Origin: an uncultured Verrucomicrobiae bacterium
GTDB lineage: Bacteria; Verrucomicrobiota; Verrucomicrobiia; Chthoniobacterales; JAATET01
DNA length: 64,000 nucleotides
Direction of reading: 5' to 3'
Assembly: GCA_963719495.1 (NCBI GenBank)
Contig: CAVRCI010000002.1
Coordinates: 32,001-96,000, forward strand
The notes beneath the pieces are model-generated. The model was not told where the DNA came from. It did not search any database and saw only the letters and a program-made list of their open reading frames with translations. This document shows, piece after piece, positions 3,196 through 57,182 of this stretch. Within the stretch, counting starts at the first letter, position 1; each line of letters begins with the position of its first letter. A program made the translations under genes and the position numbers.

Positions 3196-3589
3196 CGTCA
3201 AGCTCAGCCACCCTGAGCGGGAATCAAGCCAACCCTGAGGTGAGCTGCCGATAGCGGGTCCGCGCAACCCCCGCCGCGAAGCGGCTAGGGGTTGGCTGCA
3301 GCGCCTTGTTCGGATCCGCCCGCCCGTGGTCCGGTCAGATGGTCAATCTACAGCCTTGCTCATTGCAATGCCGACTGATGATCAAACCATACCAGCGAGT
3401 CAAGCTAATCCGGTTTGGTTCTGAAATAGGCGCTGAATATGCTGTGCGAAAATAGCTTGGTTTGGGCGTCCAAATACGGAAATCAGCCTCGTTATGGACA
3501 ACTTCCAAATACCCCAATTTTATACAAAGCAAATTACGAACGATGTTATTTGAAATTTGGGCTTCGAGAAAATGGGGCATAGGTCCGAA
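3196..3589 (-). other. Gene-less/degenerate cassette, family C
   Basis: Homologous to the copies at 7401, 27447, 40411 and 55043; stop positions differ among copies. Confidence 0.75.
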
Positions 3590-3985
3590 CGTCAAGCTCA
3601 TCCACCCTGAACGGGTGTCAGAACTGCGCAACGCAGTTGCGCCACGAAGCGGATACAAGTTTGATGTGACAGCAAGAGGTTAGGGGTTGGCTGCAGCGCC
3701 TTGTTCGGATCCGCTCGTTCGTGGTCCCGAAGGTCGTGTCTTCCACTGCCTGACACTTGTTCCGTTGGAACGGAGAAACTCTTGAAATCGCTTGTTGGTG
3801 ATCATGGCTGATTACGAACTACAGAAGTGCTTCCGTGGTCCGGTCCTTTGATGAAGTGAACGTGGCCTTCCGCAAAGTGAATCTTGAGACGAAGGCGAGC
3901 GCATACGCCAAATTCAGATTCAAGCGTAGGAGAGTTAAGTTGTTGGTCCGGTCCGACGTGAAGAAACGCTGAGAATAGGTCCGAA
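3590..3985 (-). other. Gene-less cassette C' (shares ends with family C)
   Basis: Starts GTTCGGACCTAT, ends GGATCCGAAC; no credible ORF. Confidence 0.6.
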
Positions 3986-4450
3986 CGTCAAGCTCAGCCA
4001 CCCTGAGCGGGGCAACGAACGTCTAGGAAAGGTGTTTGCGGGAAGGGGATCGGTCGGCCAAGGCTTGCCTCAGGCCGGCTAGGGGTTGGCTGCAGCGCCT
4101 TGTTCGTCGGAAGAGGTGACTGCACAATGGAGGACCCGATCGTCCGACAGGTCGACGATGGTCAAACCCAGCAAGCGGCTTCGTTAGAGCATTCAGTAGA
4201 AGAAACTTCCGAGGTCCAGATTGACTCCGCATTATTAATATATTGCTCACGACAGGAGCCGGGCGTAACGGATTTTGGATTGATCTACTCTTGCCGCGTG
4301 AGCGCCCCATGAGTACATGGCAGGGGAATAACCGTTGGCGTCGAATCGGGAAAGATCAATGGAAAACCAGAATCGTGCTCAATCGTATGCCGAAGGGAAT
4401 CGAGCAACCCTGAACTTGCCCTTGATCTCAACTTCAATAAATCAGGCGAA
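3986..4450 (-). other. Gene-less cassette, family A
   Basis: One of 12 copies of ~465 bp carrying a family-specific attC variant. Confidence 0.8.
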
Positions 4451-4565
4451 CGTCAAGCTCAGCCACCCTGAGCGGGCAATCAAACCAACCCTGAGGTGAG
4501 TTGCCAATAGCGGGACCGAGCAACCCCAGCCAGCGAAGCGGCTAGGGGTTGGCTGCAGCGCCTTG

Positions 4566-4871
4566 TTAGCCCTGTATTCTTCCTGAGCGCTTGATCCAAT
4601 ACTCAGGTTTTCGAGATGCATGAGCGACCGCGAGAATCCAAAGAGTATCCTTTCTGACGATGTATGGGATGTAGTATGGAAATCGTTTAAAGTTTATTCT
4701 TCGATGACCGGACGCTCGAACGCTCAAGAGATCTGGTCGGTCGGATATCCACCTGATGCAGTCATCTGCCTCGTTCCTGAAGCGCCGACCGAGATCAACG
4801 GTGATACCAGAATAGTAGGTGATTGCAGAGAGGAACTCTTTCTCGGCCTCTTCGATGAAGACGACCGTCAC
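4566..4871 (-). CDS. RelE/ParE-family toxin
   Basis: RRINFKRFPYYIPY...LAVAHASRKPEYW. Confidence 0.85.
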   Translation of the reverse strand: MTVVFIEEAEKEFLSAITYYSGITVDLGRRFRNEADDCIRWISDRPDLLSVRASGHRRINFKRFPYYIPYIVRKDTLWILAVAHASRKPEYWIKRSGRIQG

Positions 4872-5101
4872 CGTTCTAAGATCGAGTCTGCCTTGGCTAG
4901 CACATGTTCATATGCGACAGGGATGGCTGATCCAGAATCGACGGCCTGTATACGCGCGCTGATCTCGCGATCCCAGGCCGACTCTGCAGAAGGACCGTCA
5001 CATGAATCCTCTAAATCGAGTAAAAACGAGGCGAGTGTCAGCCTCTGACGGTGCGAAAGCTGAAGAGCTTCTTGCGTCAAGTGTTCAAGTGCCATTGCCA
5101 T
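4868..5101 (-). CDS. Addiction-module antitoxin
   Basis: ALQLSHRQRLTLA...AWDREISAR; 4-bp overlap with the toxin gene. Confidence 0.8.
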   Translation of the reverse strand: MAMALEHLTQEALQLSHRQRLTLASFLLDLEDSCDGPSAESAWDREISARIQAVDSGSAIPVAYEHVLAKADSILER

Positions 5102-5156
5102 ACAGGAGTTTCGACCGGAGCGGGGCTTGTGGTCAACTTGTATTTCATGGGGCTAA

Positions 5157-5621
5157 CGTCAAGCTCAGCCACCCTGAGCGGAGCAACGAACGTCCAGGCA
5201 AGGTGTTTGCTGGAGGGGGATCGGTCGGCCAAGGCTTGCCTCAGGCCGGCTAGGGGTTGGCTGCAGCGCCTTGTTCGTCGGAAACGGTGACTGCACAATG
5301 GAGGACCAGAGCGTCCGACAGGCTGAGGATGATCAAATCCAGCAAACGGCTTCGTTAGAGCATTCAGTAGAAGATGCTTCTGAGGTCCAGATTGACTCCG
5401 CATTATAAATATATTGCTCGTGATAGGAGCAGGCCGGAACGGAATTTGGATGGATCTACTCATGCCGCGTGAGCGCCCCAAGCGTGCATGGCAGGCGAAT
5501 AATTCTTTGCGTCGAATCGGGAGTGATCAATGGAAAACCAGAATCGTGCTCAATCGTATGCCGAAGTGAATCGAGCAAATCTGAAATTTTCCTTGATCTA
5601 AACCCCAATATATCAGGCGAA
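5157..5621 (-). other. Gene-less cassette, family A
   Basis: Repeat copy. Confidence 0.8.
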
Positions 5622-6019
5622 CGTCAAGTTCAGCCACCCTGAGCGGGGCAACGAACGTCTAGGCAAGATGTTTGCTGGAAGGGGGATCGGTCGGCCAAGG
5701 CTTGCCGGTGATCGGCTAGGGGTTGGCTGCAGCGCCCTGGTCGTCGTGACGGGTCGCAGCGGAAGTGGCAATCAATAGCGTCCGGCAGGAACACGATACG
5801 GAAGTCGGGAAGAGCGCGATTTGCTGTAGGAGGTCCGAGTCACTGAGGGCATGCACATATCTCCTCGTGATGGCGAAAGCGTGGCCGAAAATGACAGACA
5901 AACGAGATTACCAGGAAAGCAGAGGGATGCGGAACGATTAGGAGATGATGAGAACGATACTCGGACGAATAAAATAGTAAGGTCCTAAACCGGGCGTTCA
6001 AATCAATATATTAGGCGAC
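5622..6019 (-). other. Gene-less cassette, family B (GGT/ACC core, chimeric attC)
   Basis: Starts G|GTCGCC with R'' GACGACC; near-identical to 45361-45758. Confidence 0.8.
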
Positions 6020-6141
6020 CGTCAAGCTCAGCTACCCTGAGCGGACGACCAAGCCAACCCTAAGGTGAGCTGCCGATAGCGGGTTCGAGCAACCCCAGCC
6101 AGCGAAGCGGCTAGGGGTTGGCTGCAGCGCCTTGTTCGGTC

Positions 6142-6438
6142 TCACTTCACCCGCTTTCTCCAGTAACCAGGTTCACGACTGAGGTGCATGACAGCCCAGA
6201 TTACAACTTGAGACGGTTCAACCGTATAGTAGATTCCATAGGGAAATCGGCGTATGAGGTATCGCCTAACATCGTCTTCCGCAATTGGCCAAGTCATCGG
6301 TCGAAGGCGAATGTCAGCAATACCCTTTTCGATCTGCTCGACGAAGGCCAAACCGAGACTGTCGGTGACTCCAGAATAATACCGGATGGCGTTCGTATAC
6401 TCTCGCTTCGCCGCAGGGTGGAAACTGAACCCTGTCAC
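6142..6438 (-). CDS. RelE/ParE-family toxin
   Basis: RRYLIRRFPYGIYY...AVMHLSREPGYW. Confidence 0.85.
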   Translation of the reverse strand: MTGFSFHPAAKREYTNAIRYYSGVTDSLGLAFVEQIEKGIADIRLRPMTWPIAEDDVRRYLIRRFPYGIYYTVEPSQVVIWAVMHLSREPGYWRKRVK

Positions 6439-6671
6439 CGGGCGATGGTCACCTTGCGGGCGTCTTGTAGCACTTCTTCGCCAGGTAGAAGTTGGACGGT
6501 GCCACTGTCGACCTCCGCTCGACGGGACTTGATCTCGTCAAGGTGTCGGCGCTCCAGTGATGGATCAATATCCGTTGCGATGCTCTGAACGATTCTGTCA
6601 ACCAAGTCGGACCTCATCGAAGGAGAAAGCTCAAGCGACTTCGTCAGGATTTCATCAGCGGTGATTGTCAT
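6435..6671 (-). CDS. Addiction-module antitoxin
   Basis: MTITADEIL...EIKSRRAEV; ATGA overlap with the toxin gene. Confidence 0.8.
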   Translation of the reverse strand: MTITADEILTKSLELSPSMRSDLVDRIVQSIATDIDPSLERRHLDEIKSRRAEVDSGTVQLLPGEEVLQDARKVTIAR

Positions 6672-6839
6672 GCTGCTAGAGTAATTCTTGCGCTTGGTGT
6701 TGGCAATCGAATCATTGGACCGAACGTCAAGCTCAGCCACCCTGAGCGGGCAACCGAGCCAACCCCAAGGTGAGCTGCCAATGGCGGGACCGAGCAACCC
6801 CAGCCAGCGAAGCGGCTAGGGGTTGGCTGCAGCGCCTTG

Positions 6840-7157
6840 TTAGGGCTGTATTTTTATGTAGCCTCCGGGTTCAGAGTCATGAACAGCAGAGACAATCCGA
6901 TCAATATATCTTGGAATGTCCTTTTTCTGAATGAGGGGGATCTCAACAATCGAGATCTTGCGTCCCAATAGGTTCTGCTGATAGCGCAATTTGGAGTCAG
7001 CCGTGACGAAAACGTCATATTGAGAATCGATCAGTTGGATCAATTGCCCATTTTGAACTCCCGCCCAGCCCTTGAAGTAGACGGTGACAACTGTGAACTC
7101 TTTGAGAAAATGGCGAAGAACTACAGGAAGGTTCTCGTCAAGAATTACTGTCTTCAC
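6840..7157 (-). CDS. DUF5615/VapC45-like PIN toxin
   Basis: VILDENLP...FVTADSKLRYQQNL. Confidence 0.8.
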   Translation of the reverse strand: MKTVILDENLPVVLRHFLKEFTVVTVYFKGWAGVQNGQLIQLIDSQYDVFVTADSKLRYQQNLLGRKISIVEIPLIQKKDIPRYIDRIVSAVHDSEPGGYIKIQP

Positions 7158-7400: not shown

Positions 7401-7797
7401 CGTCAAGCTCAGCCACCCTGAGCGGGCAATCAAGCCAACCCTGAGGTGAACTGCCGATAGTGGGTCCGAGCAACCCCAGCCAGCGAAGCGGCTAGGGGTT
7501 GGCTGCAGCGCCTTGTTCGGATCCGCCCGCCCGTGGTCCGGTCCGATGGTCAATCTAAAGCCTTGCTCATTGCCATGCCGACTGATGATCAAACCATATC
7601 AGCAAGTCAAACTGATCCGGTTAGGTTCGAAAATAGGCACTGAATATGCTGTGCGAAAATAGCTTGATTTGGGCTTCCAGATAGGGAAATCAACCTCATT
7701 GTGGACAACATCCAAATACGCCAATTTTATACAAAGCAAATTACGAACGATGTTGTTTGCAATTTGGGCGTTGAGAAACTGGGGCATAGGTCCGAAC
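7401..7797 (-). other. Gene-less/degenerate cassette, family C
   Basis: Repeat copy. Confidence 0.75.
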
Positions 7798-8620: not shown

Positions 8621-9552
8621 CGTCAAGCTCAGCCACCCTGAGCGGGGCAACGAACGTCTAGGAAAGGTGTTTGCGGGAAGGGGATCGGTCGGCCAAGGCT
8701 TGCCTCAGGCCGGCTGGGGGTTGGCTGCAGCGCCTTGTTCGTCGGAAGAGGTGACTGCACAATGGAGGACCCGATCGTCCGACAGGCCGACGATGGTCAA
8801 ACCCAGCAAGCGGCTTCGTTAGAGCATTCAGTAGAAGAGGCTTCTGTGGTCCAGATTGACTACGCAGTATAAATATATATTGCTCGCGACAAGAGCAGGC
8901 CGGAACGGATTCTGGATGGATCTACTCATGCCGCGTGAGCGCCCCAAGCGTGCATGGCAGGCGAATAATCGTTGGCGTCGAATCGGGAGTGATCAATGGA
9001 AAACCAGAATCGTGCTCAATCGTATGCTGAAGGGAATCGAGCAACTCTGAACTTTCCCTTGATCTCAACTCCAATAGATCAGGCGAACGTCAAGCTCAGC
9101 CACCCTGAGCGGGGCAACGAACGTCTAGGCAAGGTGTTTGCGGGAAGGGGATCGTTCGGCCAAGGCTTGCCGCTGGTCGGCTAGGGGTTGGCTGCAGCGC
9201 CTTGTTCGTCGGAAACGGTGACTGCACAATGGAGGAGCCGAGCGTCCGACAGGCTGACGATGGTCAATTCCAGCAAGCGGCTTCGTCAGAGCATTCAGTA
9301 GAAAATGCCTCTGTGGTCCAGATCGACTCCGCATTATAAATATACTGCTCGTGACAAGAGCAGGGCGGAACGGATCGTGGATGGATCTACTCTTGCCGCG
9401 TGAGCGCCCCAAGCGTGCATGGCAGGCGAATAACCGTTGGCGTCGAATCGGGAGTGATCAATGGAAAACCAGAATCGTGCTCAATCGTATGCGGAAGGGA
9501 ATCGAGCAACTCTGAACTTTCCCTTGATCTCAACCCCAATAGATCAGGCGAA
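8621..9552 (-). other. Two tandem gene-less family A cassettes (8621-9087, 9088-9552)
   Basis: Two non-identical repeat copies. Confidence 0.8.
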
Positions 9553-10118: not shown

Positions 10119-10583
10119 CGTCAAGCTCAGCCACCCTGAGCGGGGCAACGAACGTCTAGGAAAGGTGTTTGCGGGAAGGGGATCGGTCGGCCAAGGCTTG
10201 CCTCAGGCCGGCTAGGGGTTGGCTGCAGCGCCTTGTTCGTCGGAAGAGGTGACTGCACGATGGAGGACCCGATCGTCCGACAGGCCGACGATGGTCAAAC
10301 CCAGCAAGCGGCTTCGTTAGAGCATTCAGTAGAAGATGCTTCTGTGGTCCAGATTGACTCCGCAGTATAAATATATTGTTCGTGACACGAGAAGTGCGGA
10401 ACGGATTCTAGATGGATCTACTCATGCCGCGTGAGCGCCCCAAGCGTGCATGGCAGGCGAATAATTCTTGGGGTCGAATCGGGAGTGATCAATGGAAAAC
10501 CAGAATCGTGCTCAATCGTATGCCGAAGGGAATCGAGCAAATCTGAACTTTTCCTTGATCTAAACTCCAATAAATCAGTCTAA
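10119..10583 (-). other. Gene-less cassette, family A
   Basis: Repeat copy. Confidence 0.8.
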
Positions 10584-11263
10584 CGTCAAGCTCAGCCACC
10601 CTGAACGGGAGTTCGGATTTGACTGGTGATCATCTGCCCGTGGCGGGTGGCGCAACCCGGCCGCGAAGCGGCTAAGGGTTGGCTGCAGCGCCTTGTTCGG
10701 CCAGAAACGCCCAAGCAACGAAGGACTCCGCTATCTCGATGCCAACCCGTCTGTATTGATTGCATAGTTTCTCTATATCCAATTGCAATTGACGCGGAAT
10801 GGGGAAGTGGCTGATGGAGGAAAATGGTCTAGGAATGGAATCGACAGTCGGTAGTAGGAGAGGGGAATGCCGGTCTTGAAGAAGCGGCTCACATCAAAAG
10901 TGATTGGCAGTAACATCCATTGTTGGACATTCGATCAGGTCTTTCATCAACGAATCGACTTGCGAGATTTGAAACCGTAATTATGCGGAAGAATGTTCAC
11001 CCCGGGCTGATCGCTCCATGTTGGTATGAAATCACCGTGCTATTGCAATAGTGTTGATCAGGCAAAAATATTTTTTTTCGCTCCGCGAAAAGAGATGAGG
11101 AGAATGCTGGATGCTGGTTGAAAGTAATAACTGAATTCCCGCACGAACTTCCGAATACTCGAACACCCTGATCTACAGCATATTTTTTTAGATCGCCGTG
11201 CCGAGATGGTGTTGAAAGACAAGTGGCTCAGAATAGTTCATCCGCCGGAGGCTGCATGCCGGA
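10584..11263 (-). other. Gene-less cassette (single copy) carrying the 16-bp leader motif
   Basis: No ORF of 60 aa or more on the cassette strand; motif at 11238-11253. Confidence 0.65.
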
Positions 11264-18462: not shown

Positions 18463-18969
18463 GTCGCCTTATACAAAAAATAACGATTTAGTTCGGTTTA
18501 GGAACGCTCGCTTTCGATTCGATCGGGCGACTGAGCCGAGGGAATTCGACTGGATGCCCCTTTCCCCTTCCATCCGCCGACTCCCCTCGTCACAGACGCC
18601 CTCTTCCACCTCTCCGATCTCACTTCGCCGTTCCGGGTCTCGCCGCTCCACCCGCAGAGCCGGGTCGAGCTTGCGCCTCCGCGACTTCGCTGATTGATCT
18701 GTTTCGATTACATTTTCACCATCACGAGGAAATATTGCCACGACCAGTCTGGCTCGAGCCTCGGTCCATGTGGTTGAATTGTTCCTGACTTCCACGGTTT
18801 CGCCCCTGTCGGATGCTACGGTCGGCCATCTTGTCCACGAGCCGTCCCGACGACCAGAGCGCTGCAGCCAACCCCTAGCCGTCACCCGGCGCTCTTGTTC
18901 TGACTTCCGTCCAGTCCATCACATCAAGCTCAGAATTTGGTCCCCCGTTCGGGGTGGCTGAGCTTGGCG
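18463..18969 (+). other. Cassette family B' (GGT/ACC core; possible antisense ORF)
   Basis: Homologous to 40806-41314. Confidence 0.75.
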
Positions 18970-19648: not shown

Positions 19649-20113
19649 TTCGCCTGATTTATTGGAGTTAAGATCAAGGGAAAGTTCAGAGTTGCTCGAT
19701 TCCCTTTGGCATACGATTGAGCACGATTCTGGTTTTTCATTGATCACTCCCGATTCGGCCCCAAGAATTATTCGCCTGCCATGCACGCTTGGGGCGCTCA
19801 CGCGGCCTGAGTAGATCCATCCAGAATCCGTTCCGCCCTTCTCGTGTCACGAGCAATATATTTATAATGCGAAGTCAATCTGGACCACAGAAGCCTCTTC
19901 TACTGAATGCTCTAACGAAGCCGCTTGCTGGATTTGACCATCGTCGGCCTGTCGGACGCTCTGGTCCTCCATTGTGCAGTCACCGTTTCCGACGAACAAG
20001 GCGCTGCAGCCAACCCCTAGCCGACCAGAGGCAAGCCTTGGCCGACCGATCCCCTTCCGGCAAACACCTTGCCTAGACGTTCGTTGCCCCGCTCAGGGTG
20101 GCTGAGCTTGACG
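19649..20113 (+). other. Gene-less cassette, family A (candidate structured RNA)
   Basis: Repeat copy; long hairpin at 19662-19764. Confidence 0.8.
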
Positions 20114-21057: not shown

Positions 21058-21454
21058 GTCGCCTAATATATCTGTTTTGAACGCCCGGTTTACGACCTTC
21101 AGATCTTATTCGTCCGAGTATCGTTCTCATCATCTCCTCATCGTTCCGCGTCCCTCTGCTTTGCTGGTAATCTCGTTTGTCTGTCTTTTTTGCCACGCTT
21201 TCGCCATCACGAGGAGATATGTGCATGCCATCAGTGACTCGGACCTCTTGCAGCAAATCACCCCCTTCCCAACTTCCTTATCTTGTTCCTGCCGGACGCT
21301 ATCGATTGCCACTTCCGCTGCGACCCGTCCCGACGACCAGGGCGCTGCAGCCAACCCCTAGCCGATCACCGGCCGCTGTTGCACTGACTTCCGGGTGGCA
21401 GTTTACATCCTTCTTCAGAGTTCGGATCCCCGTTCGGGGTGGCTGAGCTTGGCG
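21058..21454 (+). other. Gene-less cassette, family B
   Basis: G|GTCGCC start, GACGACC R''. Confidence 0.8.
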
Positions 21455-23387: not shown

Positions 23388-23635
23388 GTCGCCTAATATA
23401 TAGATTTGAACGCCCGGTTTAGGAACATCACGGTTGGATTCTCCAAGTATTGTTCTCCTTATCTCTGCTCCGTTCGGCGCTACGCTGCTCTACTGGTGAC
23501 CTCGTTTGTCTGTCTTCTTCAGCCACGTTTTCACCATCACGAGGAGATATTTGAACGCCTCTAGTGATTCGGACCTCACTCAGCAAATCACCCTCTTCCC
23601 AACTTCCGTATCTTGTTCCTGCCGGACGCTATTAA
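23388..23635 (+). other. 5' part of the split family B cassette
   Basis: Ends with the reverse complement of the TSD at 14650-14665. Confidence 0.85.
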
Positions 23636-25122
23636 TGTCGGGGCCTGTTCAAAAGTGAACGGAGACTGTTCAAAAGCGGAATGAGAGACTGTTCAAAAGT
23701 GGATTGGGGGTTTTGGGGCGTTGTATTGGGAGACGCGGGAAACGCCTCGGAGGAGGCCGGAGCGTAGCGGAGGCTGACGGAGAGGCGCTTCCCGCGTGCG
23801 CGCCTGCTCCCCGGCCCCAGTGCCCCAAGGATACCAGCCGTTGGGGTGAAGCGTTTGTGGAACGCGCTGGCTTGCGCGCTCGCCTGGTCGATTATCCCGG
23901 ATTGAAAAGAAGCAGATTACCCACCGTCTCCCGCCAGATTTTGTCCGTCGCACACTTGCAGATTTCAATGCAGGACTTCTCGATGCCAGCAATGCCGCAA
24001 GCCAGTTAGGCATCGGCAAAACCAGGCTCTATGAACTCCGCACGGCCTACCTCGCAAATCGTAATTCCTACGCCCCGGCTGCCAGCGGGGGCGCTCGTCG
24101 CGCCGACTGGCCGCCCGAAGTTGAACGCTTTCTCCAAGAGTTTCTGCCGCTTCAGAACCCACCCAATTACCAGTTAGTCGCCGACGAACTTGAGCGACTC
24201 TGCGGATTCGTTCGGGCGCGCTCGGTCGTCGAGACCCACGTCAAAGCGCGCTACGCCCATCTGGTGCCCTCGCCGACCCGCAAGCCTCGCGTTTATCGGC
24301 GCTTCCGTCGCGCTCGCATCGGCGAACTTTGGCAGCACGACAGTTCGATCCACCAATGGTGGCCCGCCGCCGCTAAACAGACTTTACTGCTCACCGTCGA
24401 CGACCATTCGGGCCTGAATCTAGCAGGTCGCTTCGTGGAATCCGATACCACTTGGAACCATTTCGGACATTTCCGCGAATCCTTCGAGACCTGGGGCCTG
24501 CCGCAGATCGTTTACACTGATGGCCTCAGCCTCTTCGGGCCAAGTTCCAGCGGCGATCACTGCGATCCTAAGAGTGAATTCCAACGCGCCCTCCGCGGAC
24601 TCGGCGTCGCTCACTTAGTGGCACCGACCCCACAAGCTAAGGGTAAGATCGAGCGCCGTTTCGGGACTTTCCAGAGACGGCTCGTCACACTACTCGCCCA
24701 TGCCAGCGCCAAAACTTGGCCCCAGGCCGACGAAATTCTTCAGATGGAGATTGCCAGGCAGAACCGTACCGTCAATCGCTCCACCGGCAAGGTCCCGCTC
24801 CATCTGTGGGAAGCGCAGTCGCTTGGCGACAGCGGGCGCATGCGCCCCATCCCGCCTTCCGCGCTCCTAGACTTACACCTCTCAATCCGCTGCTCCCGCC
24901 GGGTGAACAATGACCACACCATCGACTTCGATGGCTCCAACTACGAGATCTCCAACACCCAGCGCAAGAGCGTCACCATCGTCCACCATCCCGGAAGCCG
25001 TTTCTGGGTCGTCGAACACCCTCCCAAAACCGTCTGGCCCCCCATTCTAGGCCACTTCAGCCTCTAAAATCGCTGTTCGCTTTTGAACAGGCGAGAATTC
25101 CGCTTTTGAACAGTCGCCGACA
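23636..25122 (+). mobile_element. IS1202-like element, uninterrupted copy, 1487 bp
   Basis: TGT...ACA ends; three left and two right CTGTTCAAAAG repeats; 16-bp TSDs. Confidence 0.85.
23901..25067 (+). CDS. rve/DDE transposase with N-terminal HTH (start uncertain)
   Basis: GELWQHDSS, VDDHS, YTDG and PQAKGKIERRFGTFQRRL motifs; frame open from 23850 and includes AASQLGIGKTRLYELR. Confidence 0.8.
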   Translation: MEKKQITHRLPPDFVRRTLADFNAGLLDASNAASQLGIGKTRLYELRTAYLANRNSYAPAASGGARRADWPPEVERFLQEFLPLQNPPNYQLVADELERLCGFVRARSVVETHVKARYAHLVPSPTRKPRVYRRFRRARIGELWQHDSSIHQWWPAAAKQTLLLTVDDHSGLNLAGRFVESDTTWNHFGHFRESFETWGLPQIVYTDGLSLFGPSSSGDHCDPKSEFQRALRGLGVAHLVAPTPQAKGKIERRFGTFQRRLVTLLAHASAKTWPQADEILQMEIARQNRTVNRSTGKVPLHLWEAQSLGDSGRMRPIPPSALLDLHLSIRCSRRVNNDHTIDFDGSNYEISNTQRKSVTIVHHPGSRFWVVEHPPKTVWPPILGHFSL

Positions 25123-27446: not shown

Positions 27447-27875
27447 CGTCAAGCTCAGCCACCCTGAGCGGGCAATCAAGGTCAAGCTCAGCCACCCTGA
27501 GCGGGCAATCAAGCCAACCCTGAGGTGAGCTGCCAATAGCGGGACCGAGCAACCCCAGCCAGCGAAGCGGCTGGGGGTTGGCTGCAGCGCCTTGTTCGGA
27601 TCCGCCTGTCCGTGGTCCCGTCGGATCTGCTATCTACAGCCTTGCTCATTGTCTAGCCGACTGATGATCGAGCCATACCAACGAGTGACACTGATGCGGG
27701 TTGATGGGGAAATACGCTACGCATGGGCTGGGTAAAAATACCTTGGTTTGGGCTTTCGGATACTCAAAGCAACCTCATTGTGAACACCTTCCGAATACGC
27801 CAATTTTATACAAAGCAAATCACGAACGATCTATTTTGCAATTTGGGCGTCCAGAAACTGGGGCATAGGTCCGAA
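27447..27875 (-). other. Family C cassette; attC has a 33-bp tandem duplication
   Basis: 27448-27480 is repeated at 27481-27513. Confidence 0.8.
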
Positions 27876-28806
27876 CGTCAAGCTCAGCCACCCTGAGCGG
27901 GGCAACGAACGTCTAGGCAAGGTGTTTGCTGGAAGGGGGATCGGTCGGCCAAGGCTTGCCGCAGGCCGGCTAGGGGTTGGCTGCAGCGCCTTGTTCGTCG
28001 GAAACGGTGACTGCACAATGGAGGACCTGAGCGTCCGACAGGCTGACGATGATCAAATCCAGCAAGCGGCTTCGTTAGAGCATTCAGTCGAAGAGGCCTC
28101 TGTGGTCCAGATTGACGACGCATTATAACTATATTGCTCGTGACACGAGAAGGGCGGAACGGATTCTGGATTGGTCTACTCTTGCCGCGTGAGCGCCCCA
28201 AGCGTGCATGGCAGGCGAAAAACCCTTGGGGTCGAATCGGGAGTGATCAATGGAAAGCCAGAATCGTGCTCAATCGTATGCCGAAGGGAATCGAGCAACT
28301 CTAAACTTTCCCTTGATTTCAACCCCAATAAATCAGGCGAACGTCAAGCTCAGCCACCCTAAGCGGAGCAACGAACGTCTAGGCAAGGTGTTTGCCGGAA
28401 GGGGATCGGTCGGCCAAGGCTTGGCGCAGGCCGGCTAGGGGTTGGCTGCAGCGCCTTGTTCGTCGGAAACGGTGACTGCACAATGGATGACCCGATCGTC
28501 CGACAGGCCGACGATGGTCAAACCCAGCAAGCGGCTTCGTTAGAGCATTCAGTAGAAGAGGCTTCTGTGGTCCAGATTGACTTCGCATTATGAATATATT
28601 GCTCGTGACACGAGAAGGGCGGAACGGATTCTGGATGGATCTACTCATGCCGCGTGAGCGCCCCAAGCGTGCATGGCAGGCGAATAATTCTTGGGGTCGA
28701 ATCGGGAGCGATCAATAGAAAACCAGAATCGTGCTCAACCGTATGCCGAAGGGAATCGAACAACTCTGAACCTTCCCTTGATCTCAACCCCAATAAATCA
28801 GGCGAA
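27876..28806 (-). other. Two tandem family A cassettes (27876-28341, 28342-28806)
   Basis: Repeat copies. Confidence 0.8.
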
Positions 28807-35203: not shown

Positions 35204-35668
35204 CGTCAAGCTCAGCCACCCTGAGCGGGGCAACGAACGTCTAGGCAAGGTGTTTGCCGGAAGGGGATCGGTCGGCCAAGGCTTGCCGTTGGCCGGCTAG
35301 GGGTTGGCTGCAGCGCCTTGTTCGTCGGAAGAGGTGACTGCACGATGGAGGACCCGATCGTCCGACAGGCCGACGATGGTCAAACCCAGCAAGCGGCTTC
35401 GTTAGAGCATTCAGTAGAAGATGCTTCTGTGGTCCAGATTGACTCCGCATTATAAATATATTGCTCGTGACAAGAGCAGGCCGGAGAGGATTCTGGATGG
35501 ATCTACTCATTCCGCGTGAGCGCCCCAAGCGTGCATGGCCGGCGAATAATCGTTGGCGTCGAATCGGGAGTGATCAATAGAAAACCAGAATCGTGCTCAA
35601 TCGTATGCCGAAGGGAATCGAGCAACTCTGAATTTTCCCTTGATCTTAACTCCAATAAATCAGGCGAA
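35204..35668 (-). other. Gene-less cassette, family A
   Basis: Repeat copy. Confidence 0.8.
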
Positions 35669-36286: not shown

Positions 36287-36899
36287 CGTCAAGCTCAGCC
36301 ACCCTGAGCGGGGAACCAAGCCAACCCTGAGGTGAGCTGCGAGTAGCGGGTCCGCGCAACCCCCGCCGCGAAGCGGCTAGGGGTTGGCTGCAGCGCCTTG
36401 TTCGACGCGCATCTGTTCAAACTACGCATATCGTGACTTCCTCAAGCCAACCCCTCCGTATCTCTACCGAAGGCACTCCAATAATGACGATCAAACCTTC
36501 GAAGAGGCTTCGCGATTGGAATCACTGAAATGCGATTGGAAGATTGTAGAGAGTAAAGGCTGAACTGGAGCGGGGGGCTTGGGATCAAGCTCACAAATAT
36601 ACGCCAGGAAGATTGTAGGGGGTAGAGGCTGAATTGGAATAGAGAGGGGGCATCAAGCTCACAAATAGAAGCTTGGAACGATTGTTGGGACATCTGGTGA
36701 CTTCCGAACGATTGGTCGAAAATCAAAATATTCTATCCGTTGAGAAACTGGGTTTGTTGCCTAGGCCCCGATCCTCCGTCCTGCGCTGGTCGAAAAAAAA
36801 GAACCCGACCGCTTGAAACAAGATGTGGTGTCCCCTGACGGCGTCCGAATATGTAAGAGCGAAATATAGTCATCCGCCGGAGGCTCACAATGAGTCGAA
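36287..36899 (-). other. Gene-less cassette, family E, with internal ~69-bp tandem repeats
   Basis: Homologous to 48217-48835. Confidence 0.7.
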
Positions 36900-37364
36900 C
36901 GTCAAGCTCAGCCACCCCGAGCGGGGCAACGAACGTCTAGGCAAGGTGTTTGCCGGAAGGGGATCGGTCGGCCAAGGCTTGCCTCAAGCCGGCTAGGGGT
37001 TGGCTGCAGCGCCTTGTTCGTCGGAAGAGGTGACTGCACGATGGAGGACCCGATCGTCCGACAGGCCGACGATGGTCAAACCCAGCAAGCGGCTTCGTTA
37101 GAGCATTCAGTAGAAGAGGCTTCTGTGGTCCAGATTGACTACACATTATAAATATATTGCTCGTGACAAGAGCAGGCCGGAACGGATTCTGGATGGATCT
37201 ACTCATGCCGCGTGAGCGCCCCAAGCGTGCATGGCAGGCGAATAATCGTTGGCGTCGAATCGGGAGTGATCAATAGAAAACCAGAATCGTGCTCAATCGT
37301 ATGCCGAAGGGAATCGAACAACTCTGAACCTTCCCTTGATCTCAACCCCAATAAATCAGGCGTA
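36900..37364 (-). other. Gene-less cassette, family A
   Basis: Repeat copy. Confidence 0.8.
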
Positions 37365-39776: not shown

Positions 39777-40410
39777 CGTCAAGCTCAGCCACCCTGAGCG
39801 GGTGATAGAGCCAACCCTGAGGTGATCTGCCGGTAGCGGGAACGAGCAACCCCAGCCAGCGAAGCGGCTAGGGGTTGGCTGCAGCGCCTTGTTAGACTCG
39901 TATTTGTATTCTGATGCTACCGCCCATGGTGAAAGATCGATTTCGATTCACCAGATGCTTTCGAGTGGATTCCGAAATAATACGTGAACAGAAATTGATG
40001 TCAGCGTCAAAATTGGAATGAAGCAGTCTCGCGCGCCAGTGATTGGAAGCGATTGGGTGCATTCCGATTGAATGAATTCGGATTCCATTTTTAACGGGCC
40101 GAGGCAGTGAAAATTTGGTCGATTCGTTTGGCTGTCTTTTAATCGAGTTGTCCATCCAGACATTCGACAAGTGGCTTTCTCGTGATGGGAACCTAAAGTC
40201 TCAATACCCACTCCGTAAAAGTGCAGTTCTACGCAAATGCACCGTTTTCGGGTCGGAATCGAGGTGGTCAAAAATCACCAAAAAAAATTCGGGTGCTGCG
40301 CACCAAATATGACTCGTCTTCGCCTCGTTTGGGATTCGGGTTTCTCGTTGCAGGTGACAAAAAGGTAGGGGTCGCTCGTATTCAGCCCGCCGGAGGCTCA
40401 CGGAGTCTAA
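39777..40410 (-). other. Gene-less cassette, family D
   Basis: Shares ends and a 41-bp invariant block with the copies at 49410 and 53023. Confidence 0.75.
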
Positions 40411-40805
40411 CGTCAAGCTCAGCCACCCTGAGCGGGCAATCGAGCTAACCCCATGGTGAGCTGCCAATAGGGGGACCGAACAACCCCAGCCAGCGAAGCG
40501 GCTAGGGGTTGGCTGCAGCGCCTTGTTCGGATCCGCCCGTTCGTGGTCCCGTCGGATCTACAATCTGCAGCCTTGCTCGTCGCCATGCCGCTTGATAATC
40601 GACCCATACTAGCTAGTCAGACCGATGCGCTGCACTATGAAAATTGACGTCGAATGGACTGCGAAAAAATACCTTGGTTTGGGCTTCCGCACACTCAAAT
40701 TAACCTCATTGTGAACACCTTCCGAATACGCCAATTTTATACAAAGCAAATTGCGAACGATCTTTTTTGCAAATTGGACTTTCAGAAACTGGGGCATAGG
40801 TCCGA
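40411..40805 (-). other. Family C cassette
   Basis: Repeat copy. Confidence 0.75.
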
Positions 40806-41314
40806 CGCCAAGCTCAGCCACCCTGAGCGGAGGACCGAACTCTTGAAAGAGATGTAAACTGCCACCCGGAAGTCAGAACAACGGCGACCAATGATCGGCT
40901 AGGGGTTGGCTGCAGCGCCTTGGTCGTCGTGACGGGTCGTAGACACAACGGCCCGCCGTAGCATCCGACAGGGGCTGAACCGTGGAAGTCAGGAACAACG
41001 CGACCACGTGAACAGAGGCTCGAGCCAGACTGGTCGTGGCCATATCTTCTCGTGATGGTGAAATCGTAGCCGAAGCGAATGAATCAACGAAGTCACTGAA
41101 ACGGAAGCTCGACCCGGCTCTGCGGGTGGAGCGGCGAGACGCTGAACGGCGGAGGGAGATCGGAGAGCTGGAAGAGGGCGTCTGTGACGAGGGGAGTCGG
41201 CGGATGGAAGGGGACGGGGTCATCCAGTCGAATCCGCTCGTCACAGTCGCCCGGGTGAATCACCAGCTAATGTCCCTGAACCGAACTCAGTCATTATTTA
41301 TTGTATAAGGCGAC
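40806..41314 (-). other. Family B' cassette
   Basis: G|GTCGCC start, GACGACC R''. Confidence 0.75.
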
Positions 41315-43160: not shown

Positions 43161-43939
43161 CGTCAAGCTCAGCCACCCTGAGCGGGTGATCGAGCCAACC
43201 CTGAGGTGAGCTGCCGGTAGCGGGACCGAGCAACCCCAGCCAGCGAAGCGGCTAGGGGTTGGCTGCAGCGCCTTGTTAGGCCCGAGGGCGATCTGCTGCC
43301 CAGAACAATCTTGATCTCCAATGAGCCAACCCCGGAACTGATCTGTGAAGCACATATTCTCATCGGCTGACGAAGATAGGAAACCTCAATTCTTACCAAA
43401 AAAAATTCGACCTGCGGTGCTTTCTCGTTTTGGAACCAATGAAGTTTTCGCCTGTCGGTGAATTGAGCTGCGAGCGGGTCGAAAGGGCAAGTCATCCGCC
43501 GGAGGCTATCTCGTGGGAGATGGGGTGGAATCGGAGGGATCAAACTACGCTAAATGGAGCCGATCTGGTCATGAATGGCTCTGCAGGCAAGAGCTGATGG
43601 GCGGTCTATCGAGCAAAGTGCAGCGTTGTCCGATTGCGAGGTCGTCATGGTCGCTGCTCTGAGCGGGCCATGATGACCGGTCGATCTACAAGGCATGAAT
43701 CTCCAACTTCCCAGAGTCAGGTGATCGAGCATCACCCGGACTTGCTCGAACAACAGGTGTATAGATTTGTGGGCGTCTTGGGCAGGTGATGCGAGCCGAT
43801 CTGGAGTGATCCGGGGGATGAGAGGGTGAAAGGGCTGTCCCTCCGGGTCAGCTCCCGATCGGCGGTCGAGACTCCTGAGAACTTCCGCCTCCCGATGTAT
43901 ATATATCTCATCCGCCGGAGGCTCACAGGTATGGCCGAA
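43161..43939 (-). other. Cassette without a credible ORF; carries two copies of the 16-bp leader motif
   Basis: Motif at 43492-43507 and 43908-43923. Confidence 0.55.
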
Positions 43940-45360: not shown

Positions 45361-45758
45361 CGTCAAGCTCAGCCACCCTGAGTGGGGCAACGAACGTCTA
45401 GGCAAGATGTTTGCTGGAAGGGGGATCGGTCGGCCAAGGCTTGCCGGTGATCGGCTAGGGGTTGGCTGCAGCGCCCTGGTCGTCGTGACGGGTCGCAGCG
45501 GAAGTGGCAATCAATAGCGTCCGGCAGGAACACGATACGGAAGTCGGGAAGAGCGTGATTTGCTGTAGGAGGTCCGAGTCACTGAGGGCATGCACATATC
45601 TCCTCGTGATGGCGAAAGCGTGGCTGAAAAAGACAGACAAACGAGATTACCAGGAAAGCAGAGGGATGCGGAACGATGAGGAGATGATGAGAACGATACT
45701 CGGACGAATAAGATCTTAAGGTCCTAAACCGGGTGTTCAAATCAATATATTAGGCGAC
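45361..45758 (-). other. Family B cassette (chimeric attC)
   Basis: Near-identical to 5622-6019. Confidence 0.8.
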
Positions 45759-48216: not shown

Positions 48217-48835
48217 CGTCAAGCTCAGCCACCCTGAGCGGGCGACCAAGCCAACCCCCAGGTGAGCTGCCAGTAGCGGGACCGAGCAACCCCAGCCAGC
48301 GAAGCGGCTAGGGGTTGGCTGCAGCGCCTTGTTCGACGCGCATCTGTTCAAACTACGGATATCGTGACTTCCTCAAGCCGACCCCTCCGTATCTCTACCG
48401 AAGGCACTTCCACAATGAACATAGAATCTCAGGAAAGGCTCCGCAATCGAGGTTAGTAAATTGCGCCTGGAAGATTGTATGGGGGTTGAAGCGCAATTGG
48501 AAACGAGGGGCGGGAATCAAGCTCACAAATATTCGCCTGGAAGATTGTTGGTAATGGGAAGCTGAATTGGAACGGAGGGAAGGGAATCAGGCTCACCAAT
48601 ATGCGCTTGGAAGGATTCTGGGGGCTTCTGGTGACTTCCAAGTGATTGTTCGAAATCACCAAAATATTATCCACGGTGGGCAACTCTGAGCGCCGCCTAG
48701 CCATCGCGTATACCTCCAGCGCTGGTCGAAAATAGAGGGACCGACGGTCTCAAGCTGGATCTGGTCTAGTCTGATTTCGTCCGGACAACTGTAATCAAAA
48801 AATAGTCATCCGCCGGAGGCTCACAATGAGTCGAA
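48217..48835 (-). other. Family E cassette
   Basis: 70-bp repeat units at 48469, 48539 and 48609. Confidence 0.7.
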
Positions 48836-49409: not shown

Positions 49410-50042
49410 CGTCAAGCACTGTCACCCCGAACGGGTGTGCGAACTACGGGTTGTGATCAACTGGAGGAAAGTCGTGGACAAAAGTTGGCAGCGGCGCGGC
49501 TAGGGGTTGGCTGCTGCGCCTTGTTAGACTCGTATTCGTATTGAGATGCTGCCGCCTATGGTGAAAATGATGGAGTTGGTTTCACCAGTTGCATTTGAAT
49601 GGAGTCCGAAATGATACGGCAACAGGAAGTGATGTCAGCTTCAAGATTGAAACGAAGCAGTATGGCGCATGAGTGATTGGAAGCGACAGGGGTGTTTTCC
49701 GAATGTATGAATTCCGATCCGTTCGGTAGCTGGATGCATAGGACTTGAGTCGTTTCGTTTGGTTATCGTTGGGTCCGGCAGTCTATCCAAATATTCAATA
49801 AGTGGCTTCCTCGTGAAAGGCACCTTAATTCTCAACGCAAACTCCGTGAAAAGTGACAGGTTAGCGAAAATGCAGAGTTTCAGAGGCAGAAACACGATGT
49901 TCAAAAATTGTCAAAAAAAATCGGGTGCTGCGCACCAAATATGACTCGTCTTCGCCTCGTTTGGGGTCCGGGCTCATCATTGCGGGTGGCAAACAAGTTG
50001 GAGTTACTCGGAGTCATTCCGCCGGAGGCTCATGGAGTCTAA
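49410..50042 (-). other. Family D cassette
   Basis: 41-bp invariant block at 49921-49961. Confidence 0.75.
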
Positions 50043-52557: not shown

Positions 52558-53022
52558 CGTCAAGCTCAGCCACCCTGAGCGGAGCAACGAACGTTTAGGC
52601 GAGGTGTTTGCCGGAAGGGGATCGTTCGGCCAAGGCTTGCCGCTGGTCGGCTAGGGGTTGGCTGCAGCGCCTTGTTCGTCGGAAACGGTGACTGCACAAT
52701 GGAGGACCAGAGCGTCCGACAGGCTGACGATGATCAAATCCAGCAAGCGGCTTCGTTAGAGCATTCAGTCGAAGAGGCTTCTGTGGTCCAGATTGACTAC
52801 GCGTTATAAATATATTGCTCGTGACACGAAAAGGGCGGAACGGATTCTGGATTGATCTACTCTTGCCGCGTGAGCGCCCCAAGCCTGCATGGCAGGCGAA
52901 TAACCCTTGGGGTCGAATCGGGAGTGATCAATGGAAAGCCAGAATCGTGCTCAATCGTATGCCGAAGGGAATCGAGCAACTCTGAACTTTCCCTTGATCT
53001 CAACCCCAATAAATCAGGCGAA
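52558..53022 (-). other. Family A cassette
   Basis: Repeat copy. Confidence 0.8.
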
Positions 53023-53731
53023 CGTCAAGCTCAGCCACCCTGAGCGGGTAACCGAGCCAACCCCCAGGTGAGCTGCCGGTAGCGGGACCGAGCAACCCCA
53101 GCCAGCGGAGCGGCTAGGGGTTGGCTGCAGCGCCTTGTTAGACTCGTATTTGTATTCTGCTGCTTCCACACTTGGAGAATCACGGATTCTGGATCACCAA
53201 CGGCAGTCAAACGGAATCCGAAATGTTACGGCAACTTGAGTTGTGAGGTTATCGAGAAATGCTGCTTACGATATCCGCGAACAATCCGGGCAATCGACGA
53301 CTCCAAGTTGGATCTGATTGACCGAATTCGGATCGAAAGTGACTGGTATCGGACGTCAACGATTGAAAGACAAAGGCTGCATTTCTGATGTATGAGTTTG
53401 GATTCGTTTTTAATCGGTAGTTGCAATGGGAAAATGATAACGATCCGTTACGCTTTCGCTTGATCGAGTTGTCCATCCAAACATTCAATAAGTGGCTTTG
53501 CGGTGAAAGGAACGAATATCCTCAATACGTGCGCCGTAAAAATTGCAGTGCTGCGCAAATGCACGGTTTTTGGGTCAGACCATAGATGGTTGAAAATCGC
53601 CAAAAAAATCGGGTGCTGCGCACCAAATATGACTCGTCTTCGCCTCGTTGTGGCTTCGGAGTTGACGTTTCGGGCAACAATCGGACAGGAGCTAATCAGA
53701 TATTCCGCGGAGGCTAATGGAGTGAGTCTAA
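53023..53731 (-). other. Family D cassette
   Basis: 41-bp invariant block at 53609-53649. Confidence 0.75.
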
Positions 53732-54972: not shown

Positions 54973-55042
54973 CTGAGTGAATTTGGAATTTGTGATTAGG
55001 ATCGTCAGATCTGTGGTAATTTCACTTTTTTTGTATGCCGAA

Positions 55043-55438
55043 CGTCAAGCTCAACCACCCTGAGCGGGTAACCGAGCCAACCCCCAGGTGAGCTGCCAAT
55101 AGCGGGACCGAGCAACCCCAGCCAGCGAAGCGGCTAGGGGTTGGCTGCAGCGCCTTGTTCGGATCCGCATGTTCGTGGTCCCGTCGGATCTAAAATCTGC
55201 AACCTTGCTCGCCGCCATGCCGATTGATGATCGGGCCATACCAGCGAGTCAGACCGACGCGCTTTGCTACGGAAATTGACGTCGAATGGACTGCGCAAAA
55301 ATACCTTGGTTTGGGCTTCCTGCCACGCAAATCAGCCCCATTGTGGACACCTTCCGAATACACCAATTCTATACAAAGCAAATTACGAACGATCTTTTTT
55401 GCAATTCGGGCGTCCAGAAACAGGGGCATAGGTCCGAA
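55043..55438 (-). other. Family C cassette
   Basis: Repeat copy. Confidence 0.75.
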
Positions 55439-55567
55439 CGTAAAGCTCAGCCACCCTGAGCGGGAAGCCGAGCCAACCCTTAGGTGAGCTGCCGATAGCG
55501 GGACCGAGCAACCCCAGCCAGCGAAGCGGCTAGGGGTTGGCTGCAGCGCCTTGTTCGGCTGTATCTA

Positions 55568-56029
55568 TTACCGCAATATCGTATGCGGAGCGTCATCGCC
55601 GTCGACGCTTTGGGCGGGAAGGTCCTCATCGAAATGAGTCTCTTCATGATTTGTATTCATTCGAACGCGAACGCAATTTGTTAGCGTCGCTTTTGATAGG
55701 GTAATTCCGACATCTGAGATGCTTTGACGGAGGTGAAGCAACAGAAAGAGAATAGGCCCATATTCTCCTTCATCGTAGTTTTGGGGATCGATATCGTCGG
55801 GTAGTTCAAATTGCAACAGAAGAGGTCCGGTGTAGAGCGGACCTATGGTGCGAGGGCAATCTTTCAAGAGAACGATGCTCGGCGGCATTGATCGCAAATA
55901 TGAGAACCACCCTTGGCCGACCGAATCGAAATCCAGGAGATTCACTTTGACTTGGATTGAAGGACGGAGTGAAGGAATGAATCTATCCAAATAAGGACGA
56001 AGCTTCCGATGAAGCAATGCGGGAAACAT
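55568..56029 (-). CDS. Hypothetical protein
   Basis: Fills the cassette. Confidence 0.7.
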   Translation of the reverse strand: MFPALLHRKLRPYLDRFIPSLRPSIQVKVNLLDFDSVGQGWFSYLRSMPPSIVLLKDCPRTIGPLYTGPLLLQFELPDDIDPQNYDEGEYGPILFLLLHLRQSISDVGITLSKATLTNCVRVRMNTNHEETHFDEDLPAQSVDGDDAPHTILR

Positions 56030-56134
56030 AAATTTAAAGCCGAACGTCAAGCTCTGCCACCCCGAACGGGCGACCGAACAGCGGAACGCAGTTCCGCCAA
56101 ACAGCGGGTTCGAGTTTGGTGTGACATCAAGAGG

Positions 56135-56701
56135 CTAGGGGTTGGCTGCAGCGCCTTGTTCGGGCTTCATTTTTTTGTTTTCTTTAATGATGATTGTCGA
56201 AGAAGGCGGAGTGTACGGAACGGCGCTTGTCTCAATTCTGAACGTCACTTGGAAAAAGTTTTTCGGAGGGTTCGGACCAAACGTCCAAATTCGGTAAAAC
56301 CAAGAATCTGAGTTTGAGGTAGTTCTCTGAGCTAGCCGACTTCCTTCAGGAAAATCAATGAAAGCATTTCCGGCAACATTCCCTTCTGAAGACAGATTGA
56401 AAATTAAGCGGTTGGGAACATGAGTCTGTGCATCCTGAAAAAGGAAAATTCGGATTCGATAGTTTTTGGCAGGCGGATTCAGATACGGCGTCACGTCTTG
56501 TTTAATAACTCGTCCTTCTTTGGCTTTTATCTCTGCGACCAATCGGGGATAGGTCGTGCCATCCAGAGCAAGGTCAGCGCAGAAAGGAACAACGCCGAGT
56601 GCCGATGCGAGTTTCTCAGTTTTTACGACTTGCTGTCTAATCTCCTGCGCAAAACATGACCCGAATAAAAAGCCTGTAGATACAAGAATTGAAATACGCA
56701 T
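56135..56701 (-). CDS. Hypothetical secreted protein
   Basis: Signal peptide; stop inside the attC. Confidence 0.75.
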   Translation of the reverse strand: MRISILVSTGFLFGSCFAQEIRQQVVKTEKLASALGVVPFCADLALDGTTYPRLVAEIKAKEGRVIKQDVTPYLNPPAKNYRIRIFLFQDAQTHVPNRLIFNLSSEGNVAGNAFIDFPEGSRLAQRTTSNSDSWFYRIWTFGPNPPKNFFQVTFRIETSAVPYTPPSSTIIIKENKKMKPEQGAAANP

Positions 56702-56717
56702 TTGTATTATGCCCGAA

Positions 56718-57182
56718 CGTCAAGCTCAGCCACCCTGAGCGGGGTAACGAACGTCTAGGTAAGGTGTTTGCCGGATGGGAATCGGTCGGCCAAGGCTTGC
56801 CTCAGGCCGGCTAGGGGTTGGCTGCAGCGCTTTGTTCGTCGGAAGAGGTGACTGCATAGTGGAGGACCCGATCGTCCGACAGGCCGACGATGGTCAAATC
56901 TAGCAAGCGGCTTCGTCAGAGCATTCAGTAGAAGAGGCTTCTGAGGTCCAGATTGACTCCGCATTATAAATATATTGCTCGTGACAAGAGAAGGGCGAAA
57001 CGGATCCTGAATGGTTCTACTCATTCCGCGTGAGCGCCCCAAGCGTGCATGGCAGGCGAATAATCGTTGGCGTCGAATCGGGAGTGATCAATGGACAACC
57101 AGCATCGTGCTTAACCGTATGCCGAAGGGAATCGATCAATACTGAACTTTCCCTTGATCTCAACTCCAATAAATCAGGCGAA
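56718..57182 (-). other. Family A cassette
   Basis: Repeat copy. Confidence 0.8.

Follow-up and report, generated by a model that had tools for sequence, protein, structure and literature searches.

The abundance of gene-less cassettes in large integrons has been a question since 2006, and promoter activity is the only role tested at scale. In the accessible text of Boucher et al. 2006 (PMC1382264), 6–49% of the cassettes of Vibrio integrons are non-coding, one family reaches 45 copies in Vibrio vulnificus, gene conversion is suspected, and the choice between selfish and functional explanations is left open. Two other kinds are described in the parts of the sources available to us: the promoter cassettes known from Treponema (Tansirichaiya et al. 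2019, PMC6557892) and Vibrionaceae (Blanco et al., 10.1101/2023.11.21.568050), which are gene-less, have a normal attC and lie in large arrays, and the sRNA-Xcc1 cassette of Xanthomonas (PMC8876359, PMC6557892, 10.1101/2025.06.18.660453), which is gene-less and recurs within its array; the last of these sources also mentions a recurring empty cassette in Xanthomonas. Here we analyse the gene-less cassettes in a stretch of 64,000 nucleotides (nt) from an uncultured Verrucomicrobiae bacterium (the window, G000:C2:32001-96000), which belongs to a chromosomal integron of about 210 cassettes, and compare this genome (G000) with five congeners (G001–G005).

To the extent that the accessible text of Boucher et al. 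2006 (PMC1382264) permits comparison, these cassettes belong to the kind described there, to which we add turnover and modules. Like the Vibrio families, they are multi-copy and non-coding, have homologues only in close relatives and show no synonymous-site pattern; an earlier sequence-only reading of the window, which took them for its best candidate for an undescribed system, thus overstated the case, similar families being already on record. Unlike the Vibrio families, with which no direct homology comparison was made, they occur in Verrucomicrobiae, their dominant family is replaced across six congeners, and the present analysis resolves the short modules that they share, attC variants peculiar to single families, and core sites that are imperfect. 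Neither the species-by-species turnover nor the module grammar was found in the literature searched, nor was anything on GNA or triloop hairpins in integron cassettes or on gene-less cassettes of this phylum, most subscription journals and the supplements being outside the reach of that search.

The most informative new fact is the replacement of the dominant family between species. Clustering 1,110 cassettes from the six genomes defined 20 gene-less families, and the most abundant is a 289-nt family in G004 (80 of 358 cassettes parsed from the fetched stretches), a 338-nt family in G005 (55 of 166), a 369-nt family in G002 (32 of 180), the family that we call A in G000 (31 of 214), a 264-nt family in G001 (16 of 134) and a 317-nt family in G003 (10 of 58). 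Every one of them is present at 0–5 copies in any other species. The search of related genomes that had been proposed for the window therefore showed a separate dominant gene-less family in each of the five congeners, where gene-less families make up 23–47% of the array. Outside G000, G004 has a single copy of family A, 90% identical, and G001 has a distant relative; of 60 relatives, two, both congeners, gave A; in metagenomes, nine hits to an A motif matched the motif alone. All five congeners have large arrays with the host type of attC, with 66 motif matches in G003, 148 in G001, 178 in G005, 193 in G002 and 416 in G004, whereas 11 genomes from other genera of the family have 0–33.

The array is that of a sedentary chromosomal integron, with an integrase gene beside it, homogeneous attC sites and a junction in the position of attI. 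A scan for both repeat ends gave 207 complete attC sites on contig C2 (27018-175148) and five more on C7. The adjoining integrase, IntI (G000:C2:176417-177349), matches TIGR02249 at 425.6 bits against a cut-off of 265 and has no stops, and its homologue in G004 scores 422.7 bits. The short junction before the first cassette is identical in G000, G001, G002 and G004, and from its position is probably attI. The attC sites share R''/L''/L'/R' boxes and a predicted fold that favours the bottom strand, and in 210 of 217 single-gene cassettes the cassette's own R'' and R' agree at 7/7 positions. Integrase-catalysed excision and insertion probably take place in the array, as the dispersed near-identical mates described below point to indirectly. 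The whole integrase frame is 535 amino acids long (G000:C2:175745-177352), about 220 residues preceding the part matched by TIGR02249, and the homologues of G004 and G002 align with it over nearly the full length. A second integrase-like gene (G000:C1:371896-372837; 248.7 bits, slightly below the cut-off) is on a contig without an array of the host attC type.

Parsing by attC showed that 82 inter-attC slots lie entirely within the window, including two inversion junctions. Of the 82, 31 (38%) are gene-less, 29 in the families listed below and two single; the sequence-only reading had estimated about 32 of about 83, and the 29 that it had placed in families are the same, with its letters B, B', D and E matched to ours from the counts. 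Each gene-less cassette is bounded by normal cassette junctions and has its own attC, and genome-wide the families account for 74 of the 214 parsed cassettes. Four more ORF-poor (open reading frame) cassettes of the window resemble broken coding cassettes, two of them with Pfam matches.

That the families are non-coding, as had been suggested, is upheld by tests of codon-level selection, which found no codon-position bias in any of six frames in eight families of G000; families confined to the congeners were called gene-less from the loss of ORFs between copies. The ratio of non-synonymous to synonymous polymorphism (pN/pS) in the eight families was 0.57–1.89, mostly 0.7–1.1. Of 118 listed frames, 98 were submitted to a Pfam search (20 second-best frames were left out), and none of the 21 forward-strand frames of gene-less cassettes matched, no all-frame search of the BLASTX type having been made. 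Coding in any frame is ruled out by the even spread of variants over codon positions together with the lack of Pfam matches. With full-length homologues that show no synonymous-site pattern and no protein match, these cassettes are gene-less in the general sense; because copies of A, C and other families hold chance frames of 50–126 codons, they fail the screen of Boucher et al. 2006 (no ORF >150 bp), and the assignment is to the general kind only, not to that operational definition.

Several lines of evidence bear on how the families have spread. Under neutral copying (20,000 Ewens simulations) the largest family would have at most 21 members, against the 31 observed for A. The scattering of families that had been noted in the window amounts to random placement: members of A adjoin one another five times, against 4.4 expected, and in all 242 cassettes with a mate at least 98% identical the best mate is non-adjacent, which together rule out tandem slippage. 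Mates at least 99% identical are found for 120 of 415 gene-less cassettes vs 82 of 565 coding ones across the six genomes, a difference significant in three of the six; in the counts of adjacency and neighbours, as in those for core sites, attC type, attC-complementary boxes and stem variants, cassettes outside families carry labels from an ORF classifier which counts too many gene-less singles, since ORFs often run into attC before they stop. The earlier view that nearly all coding cassettes are single-copy does not extend to the whole array, where 17 of 115 have such a mate, while amplification of gene-less cassettes by the integrase is supported by the over-sized families and dispersed mates. 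In G000, the attI-proximal members of 11 near-identical gene-less pairs are closer to attI than random (p = 0.012), and nine near-identical coding pairs show no such bias (p = 0.44). The first cassette at attI is an A copy in G000, a member of a gene-less family in G001 and G004, and a coding cassette in G002.

Family A is predicted to carry the best-folding attC of its genome. Its attC type, which in G000 is confined to the 31 A copies and a pair of 272-nt cassettes, is without the competing internal hairpin that the common type has, and the median predicted probability of the recombinogenic fold (pfold) is 0.81, vs 0.018 for 103 coding cassettes; pfold exceeds 0.1 in 29 of 31 A copies vs 30 of the 103. 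In the portion of the source available, pfold is reported to control excision in vivo (PMC5371416). Across the 20 families, peak copy number drops with cassette length (rho = −0.51, p = 0.02).

Indels are scarce among copies of A and C. A copies are 87–100% identical, 28 of 30 being exactly 340 nt, and C copies 74–100% identical at 272–274 nt. Indels per substitution number 0.004 in A and 0.005 in C; the variable attC loops of the same two families give 0.04 and 0.08, and a set of 241 further pairs, most of them coding, gives 0.011; in the congener families the ratio is 0.025–0.078, to which assembly errors may contribute. Copies had been thought to diverge individually, but they are recombination mosaics: incompatible site pairs in A are rarer at short distance (0.139 vs 0.249, p = 0.002), and the same test gives a signal in the three largest congener families, a weak one in C (p = 0.02) and none in the 491-nt family. 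Of nine families examined for clustering of invariant columns, eight show it (p = 0.0005–0.034); the exception is A (p = 0.28), in which substitution is uniform. A, its G001 relative and the 272- and 384-nt families have a few fixed bases in common over their last 150 nt, and the C group has its cassette ends in common. Core sites are imperfect in A (6/7) and in the 272- and 384-nt families (5/7). The inverse core site is ACC or ATC, not AAC, in the 272- and 384-nt families of the window and in three families of G002, G003 and G004, a mismatch beside the crossover point that has arisen in two unrelated gene-less groups.

Short modules recur across families. The leader box, in which GGATGA comes directly after a 9-nt stem-loop, mostly lies 6–26 nt into the cassette and is at the 5' end of seven of the 20 families and in 48 of 422 coding clusters. 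Its stems occur in four Watson-Crick variants (in 49, 15, 6 and 1 clusters) vs five single mismatched variants, and on the bottom strand it presents a GGA loop closed by C-G. At 124 public loci with the leader-box pattern, 32 have the host-type attC, one more has an attC end, and the remainder look like chance. As an observation on coding cassettes, the box (in the window at 43139-43153, and in the 48 coding clusters of the six genomes) marks those with long 5' leaders; it is present in three of 51 two-gene cassettes and shows no bias to membrane proteins. The top-strand GNA hairpin, a G-N-A loop followed by an A/T tract, occurs in six of the 20 families and in none of 319 single-gene cassettes; in the 80-copy family the G and A of the loop are kept in 58 of 60 located copies, the middle base being variable. 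G-N-A triloops closed by C-G are unusually stable DNA hairpins. The attC-complementary box, 10 nt long and 38–42 nt before its own attC, to whose left arm it is complementary, is present in six of the 20 families and in none of 338 coding cassettes, and it lowers predicted attC folding in some copies (up to about 100-fold) and not in others. Four congener families of 315–325 nt (L013–L058) share a 22-bp imperfect inverted repeat with a 50-nt spacer and compensatory differences between families, and two of them fold somewhat better than shuffles. The idea that the cassettes are selected non-coding modules thus holds in part, for several families with clustered invariant blocks, compensatory mini-hairpins and few indels; A itself diverges uniformly, its lack of indels excepted.

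The explanation that we favour for these patterns, and to which we would give about an even chance, is that the gene-less cassettes are passengers copied by the integron integrase under cis-acting constraint. The integrase would copy them into attI more often than cassettes are lost, and the copies would come from semi-conservative excision and re-insertion (copy-and-paste) or be captured from the DNA of neighbouring cells; in the accessible parts of the respective sources, copy-and-paste is a documented outcome of cassette recombination (PMC8024014) and natural transformation can supply cassettes to attI (PMC12614218). Cassettes that are short, promoter-poor and protein-free may cost little and would therefore accumulate, while recombination between copies would mix and homogenise their sequences. 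The conserved ends, the length and the short modules would act in cis, and single-stranded DNA that is being folded, excised or re-inserted would be their most likely substrate; the GNA mini-hairpins on fixed strands and the attC-pairing box would be signals of this single-stranded kind.

A number of observations weigh against this explanation. Gene-less cassettes stand first in three of the four integrons in which attI is visible, which is not significant. Good folding is no general property of successful families: pfold is low in family C (0.008), and the 16-copy family of G001 is a poor folder too; the correlation at family level does not reach significance (rho = −0.32, p = 0.17); among coding cassettes, duplicated ones have no folding advantage over single ones; and the coding attC sites of G002 and G004 fold as well as those of the dominant gene-less families. 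Excision also deletes copies, so that a net gain requires a bias; near-identical mates could also arise by gene conversion, and large families acquire mates more easily. Among the modules, the leader box lies about 60 nt ahead of the start codon in 34 coding cassettes, like a promoter or leader element, the covariation of the attC-complementary box with the attC arm comes down to one event, between two subfamilies, and this box is predicted to lower folding, yet one family that bears it has 55 copies; leader box, GNA hairpin and attC-complementary box are all absent from A, C and the 272- and 384-nt families. The bodies of A and C are about tenfold short of indels relative to their own attC loops and have as few as coding pairs do; this scarcity is not required of a pure passenger and could be the sign of a host function.

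A bolder form of the integrase-passenger explanation, which we offer tentatively and consider rather unlikely, would make these cassettes non-autonomous parasites of the integrase with their own grammar of single-stranded DNA signals (GNA mini-hairpins, imperfect cores, private attC sites and an attC-tuning box), competing for attI, sweeping species in turn and swapping modules, so that up to half of the superintegron would be a selfish arena checked by toxin-antitoxin cassettes.

The gene-less cassettes could instead be promoter or expression-control cassettes kept for the host, whose scattered copies would activate silent cassettes lying downstream of them, or intI if the copy is the first at attI, through an alternative sigma factor or regulator. 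There is precedent in the available text of two studies, which found promoter activity in most of 29 Vibrio gene-less cassettes (10.1101/2023.11.21.568050) and in some of Treponema (PMC6557892). Within our arrays, two-gene cassettes have a sigma-70-type motif (TTG-type/16–17/TANNNT) near position 15, and a matrix trained on 51 of them, whose own median of 8.9 is biased upward, gives the 272-nt family a median of 8.6 vs 5.8 in shuffles, with the site placed as in toxin-antitoxin promoters. Leader boxes ahead of start codons also fit a control element (median start-codon offset 76 nt with the box vs 14 nt without it, in 34 vs 293 cassettes), scarce indels fit a spacing constraint, and A has a conserved AT-rich near-palindrome. 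The same matrix, however, scores A at 5.5 on the top strand and 4.1 on the bottom, below its shuffles (6.6 and 7.0), and the 491- and 511-nt families are also below theirs; C (7.1 and 6.7 vs 6.0 and 5.6) is about one unit above and falls short of the training median. A consensus scan of 3190-11000 found five sites vs 5.7 in shuffles, none of them in A or C. These scans address the housekeeping sigma-70 motif, for which the suggestion that some of the cassettes are promoters finds support in the 272-nt family and none in A or the 491- and 511-nt families, C being marginal. A Verrucomicrobia LexA-type pattern has no match in the genome. Gene-less cassettes are not in excess upstream of coding cassettes, and their neighbours match the array background; the leader-box pattern, with 31 matches in arrays and two in the other 4.4 Mb, does not behave like a regulon motif; and host need leaves the different family in each species unexplained. 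By these motif scores, the cassettes differ from the promoter cassettes of the available literature (10.1101/2023.11.21.568050; PMC6557892) in that the 272-nt family is alone in having a convincing housekeeping motif and A scores below its shuffles. Altogether we think a promoter function for the families unlikely.

Small regulatory or structural RNAs, amplified for dosage in the manner of sRNA-Xcc1, are a considerably less probable explanation. That precedent exists in the accessible portions of the sources (PMC8876359, PMC6557892), and the conserved lengths, the 22-bp inverted repeat with its compensatory differences and a weak terminator-like hairpin within some A copies would suit an RNA. 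Nonetheless, Rfam gave no match at the gathering threshold across the window and none at E ≤ 1 in 3190-11300, the z-scores of single-sequence folds hardly depart from zero in A, C and most other families, one copy of the 384-nt family excepted, and the consensus folds of the A, C, 384- and 491-nt families are about two standard deviations or less from column shuffles on both strands. These shuffle comparisons rule out a global RNA or DNA fold for the window families and lend no support to the earlier suggestion of RNAs; moreover, the loops that are conserved are of the G-N-A triloop kind, which is typical of DNA hairpins. Compared with sRNA-Xcc1, as far as its sources are available, the cassettes described here have no Rfam match and no conserved global fold.

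We give equally little credence to the view that these are neutral relics, left by decayed genes or old attC sites, whose copy number drifts and which have no selected feature. The uniform divergence and unclustered invariant columns of A would be expected of such relics, and broken coding cassettes are present in the same array. Relics would not account for the clustered invariant blocks of the eight other families, the compensatory stems, the roughly tenfold indel deficit, a family size beyond neutral expectation or an A copy 90% identical in another species.

That the families encode very small proteins overlooked by ORF callers is hardly credible: although a TTG-started frame of 50 codons is kept in most A copies (full-length in 28 of 30) and indels are rare, its pN/pS is 1.01, its variants fall 51/54/43 on the three codon positions, an early stop interrupts it in one copy and the start is lost in another, the frame in C gains stops or shifts in many copies, and the A-like cassette of G001 matches A only in its 3' part, outside the frame.

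Other origins were tried and rejected. A profile search of all cluster representatives for bodies that are decayed attC sites gave only two true fused attC sites. Chromosomal or repetitive extragenic palindromic (REP) origin is rejected in that no family matches outside the arrays beyond chance and no leader box lies beside the seven REP-associated tyrosine transposase (RAYT) genes examined; reverse-transcriptase amplification, in that the genome, 98.6% complete, has no PF00078 match; and a spacer-like memory of phages or plasmids, in that A is unmatched in phages, C, C' and A are unmatched in plasmids, and the host attC motif is absent from viral contigs. Miniature inverted-repeat transposable elements (MITEs) and the REP-derived REPINs resemble the gene-less cassettes in being short, non-coding and dispersed, with lineage-specific blooms and an enzyme supplied in trans. 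Unlike them, the cassette copies lie only at cassette junctions, are bounded by crossover sites and have no terminal repeats or REP pairs of their own, nor any link to the RAYT genes or REP repeats of the genome save one 18-nt match in one family. This is in cassette k102 of family H (G000:C2, outside the window), where an 18-nt stretch is identical to a repeat at at least eight other places in the genome.

Within the window, the 12 copies of family A, all on the reverse strand unless stated, lie at 4109..4448 (a 340-nt body whose own A-type attC, at 3984..4108 on the same strand, has a predicted pfold of about 0.8), 5280..5619, 8744..9085 (342 nt), 9211..9550, 10242..10581, 19651..19990 (forward strand, in an inverted block), 28000..28339, 28465..28804, 35327..35666, 37023..37362, 52681..53020 and 56841..57180. 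The five C cassettes (272–274 nt) are at 3315..3587, 7522..7795, 27601..27873, 40532..40803 and 55164..55436, and a single C' cassette, with the ends and length of C and a diverged interior, at 3710..3983, all on the reverse strand. The 272-nt family has three intact copies, at 5746..6017 (reverse; a promoter-like TTGAAC-16-TACTAT is placed where toxin-antitoxin promoters sit), 21060..21331 (forward) and 45485..45756 (reverse), and one copy split at the inversion, with its 5' part at 23390..23636 (forward; end approximate), cut by an insertion element at the junction, and its 3' end from 14624 on the opposite strand. The two 384-nt copies are at 18465..18848 (forward) and 40929..41312 (reverse). 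On the reverse strand are also the two copies of the 491-nt family, at 36407..36897 (leader box at about 36870-36884, attC-complementary box at 36446-36454) and 48338..48833 (leader box at about 48806-48820), and the three of the 511-nt family, at 39898..40408 (top-strand GNA hairpin at 40294-40302), 49530..50040 (GNA hairpin at 49926-49934) and 53144..53729 (with a 75-nt insertion). Two further gene-less singles, both on the reverse strand, have congener homologues: 10702..11261, with five in G005 and with a leader box and GNA hairpin, and 43282..43937, with 12 in three congeners, one of them first at attI in G004, and with two leader boxes, a GNA hairpin and an attC-complementary box.

The surrounding array shows signs of rearrangement and decay. 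An inverted block of ten attC sites occupies 14624-25462, with both junctions in the one 272-nt gene-less cassette cut by the insertion element and an ISL3 transposase inside the left junction; an attC at 27445-27600 has a 33-nt duplication of its right arm; and a cluster of five attC sites far from the integrase (G000:C7:38058-40952) includes one A copy. Broken coding cassettes (680-1149, 39406-39774 and 52188-52555) include a WapI-like gene that is split in two and a cassette for a PLDc_N membrane protein, of whose two copies one is frameshifted. Toxin-antitoxin-type or PIN Pfam models (ParE, HepT/MNT, PemK/RelB, AbiEii, DUF433/DUF5615, DUF4160/DUF2442) are matched by 19 cassettes between 4572 and 62108, almost a quarter of the slots; we take the DUF pairs to be toxin-antitoxin pairs. 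Toxin-antitoxin cassettes in such numbers are in keeping with strong pressure of excision and deletion on the array (PMC13108822).

The six congeneric arrays amount to a natural experiment, in which the attC is the same, the blooming family is different, and modules are shared with compensatory changes. Constructs with swapped attC sites, or with hairpins broken and rescued, would tell amplification of a selfish kind apart from a function for the host, and might uncover signals in cassette bodies that control recombination by the integrase. The turnover of dominant families from species to species thus makes the question of selfish versus promoter cassettes, first raised in Vibrio, directly testable.

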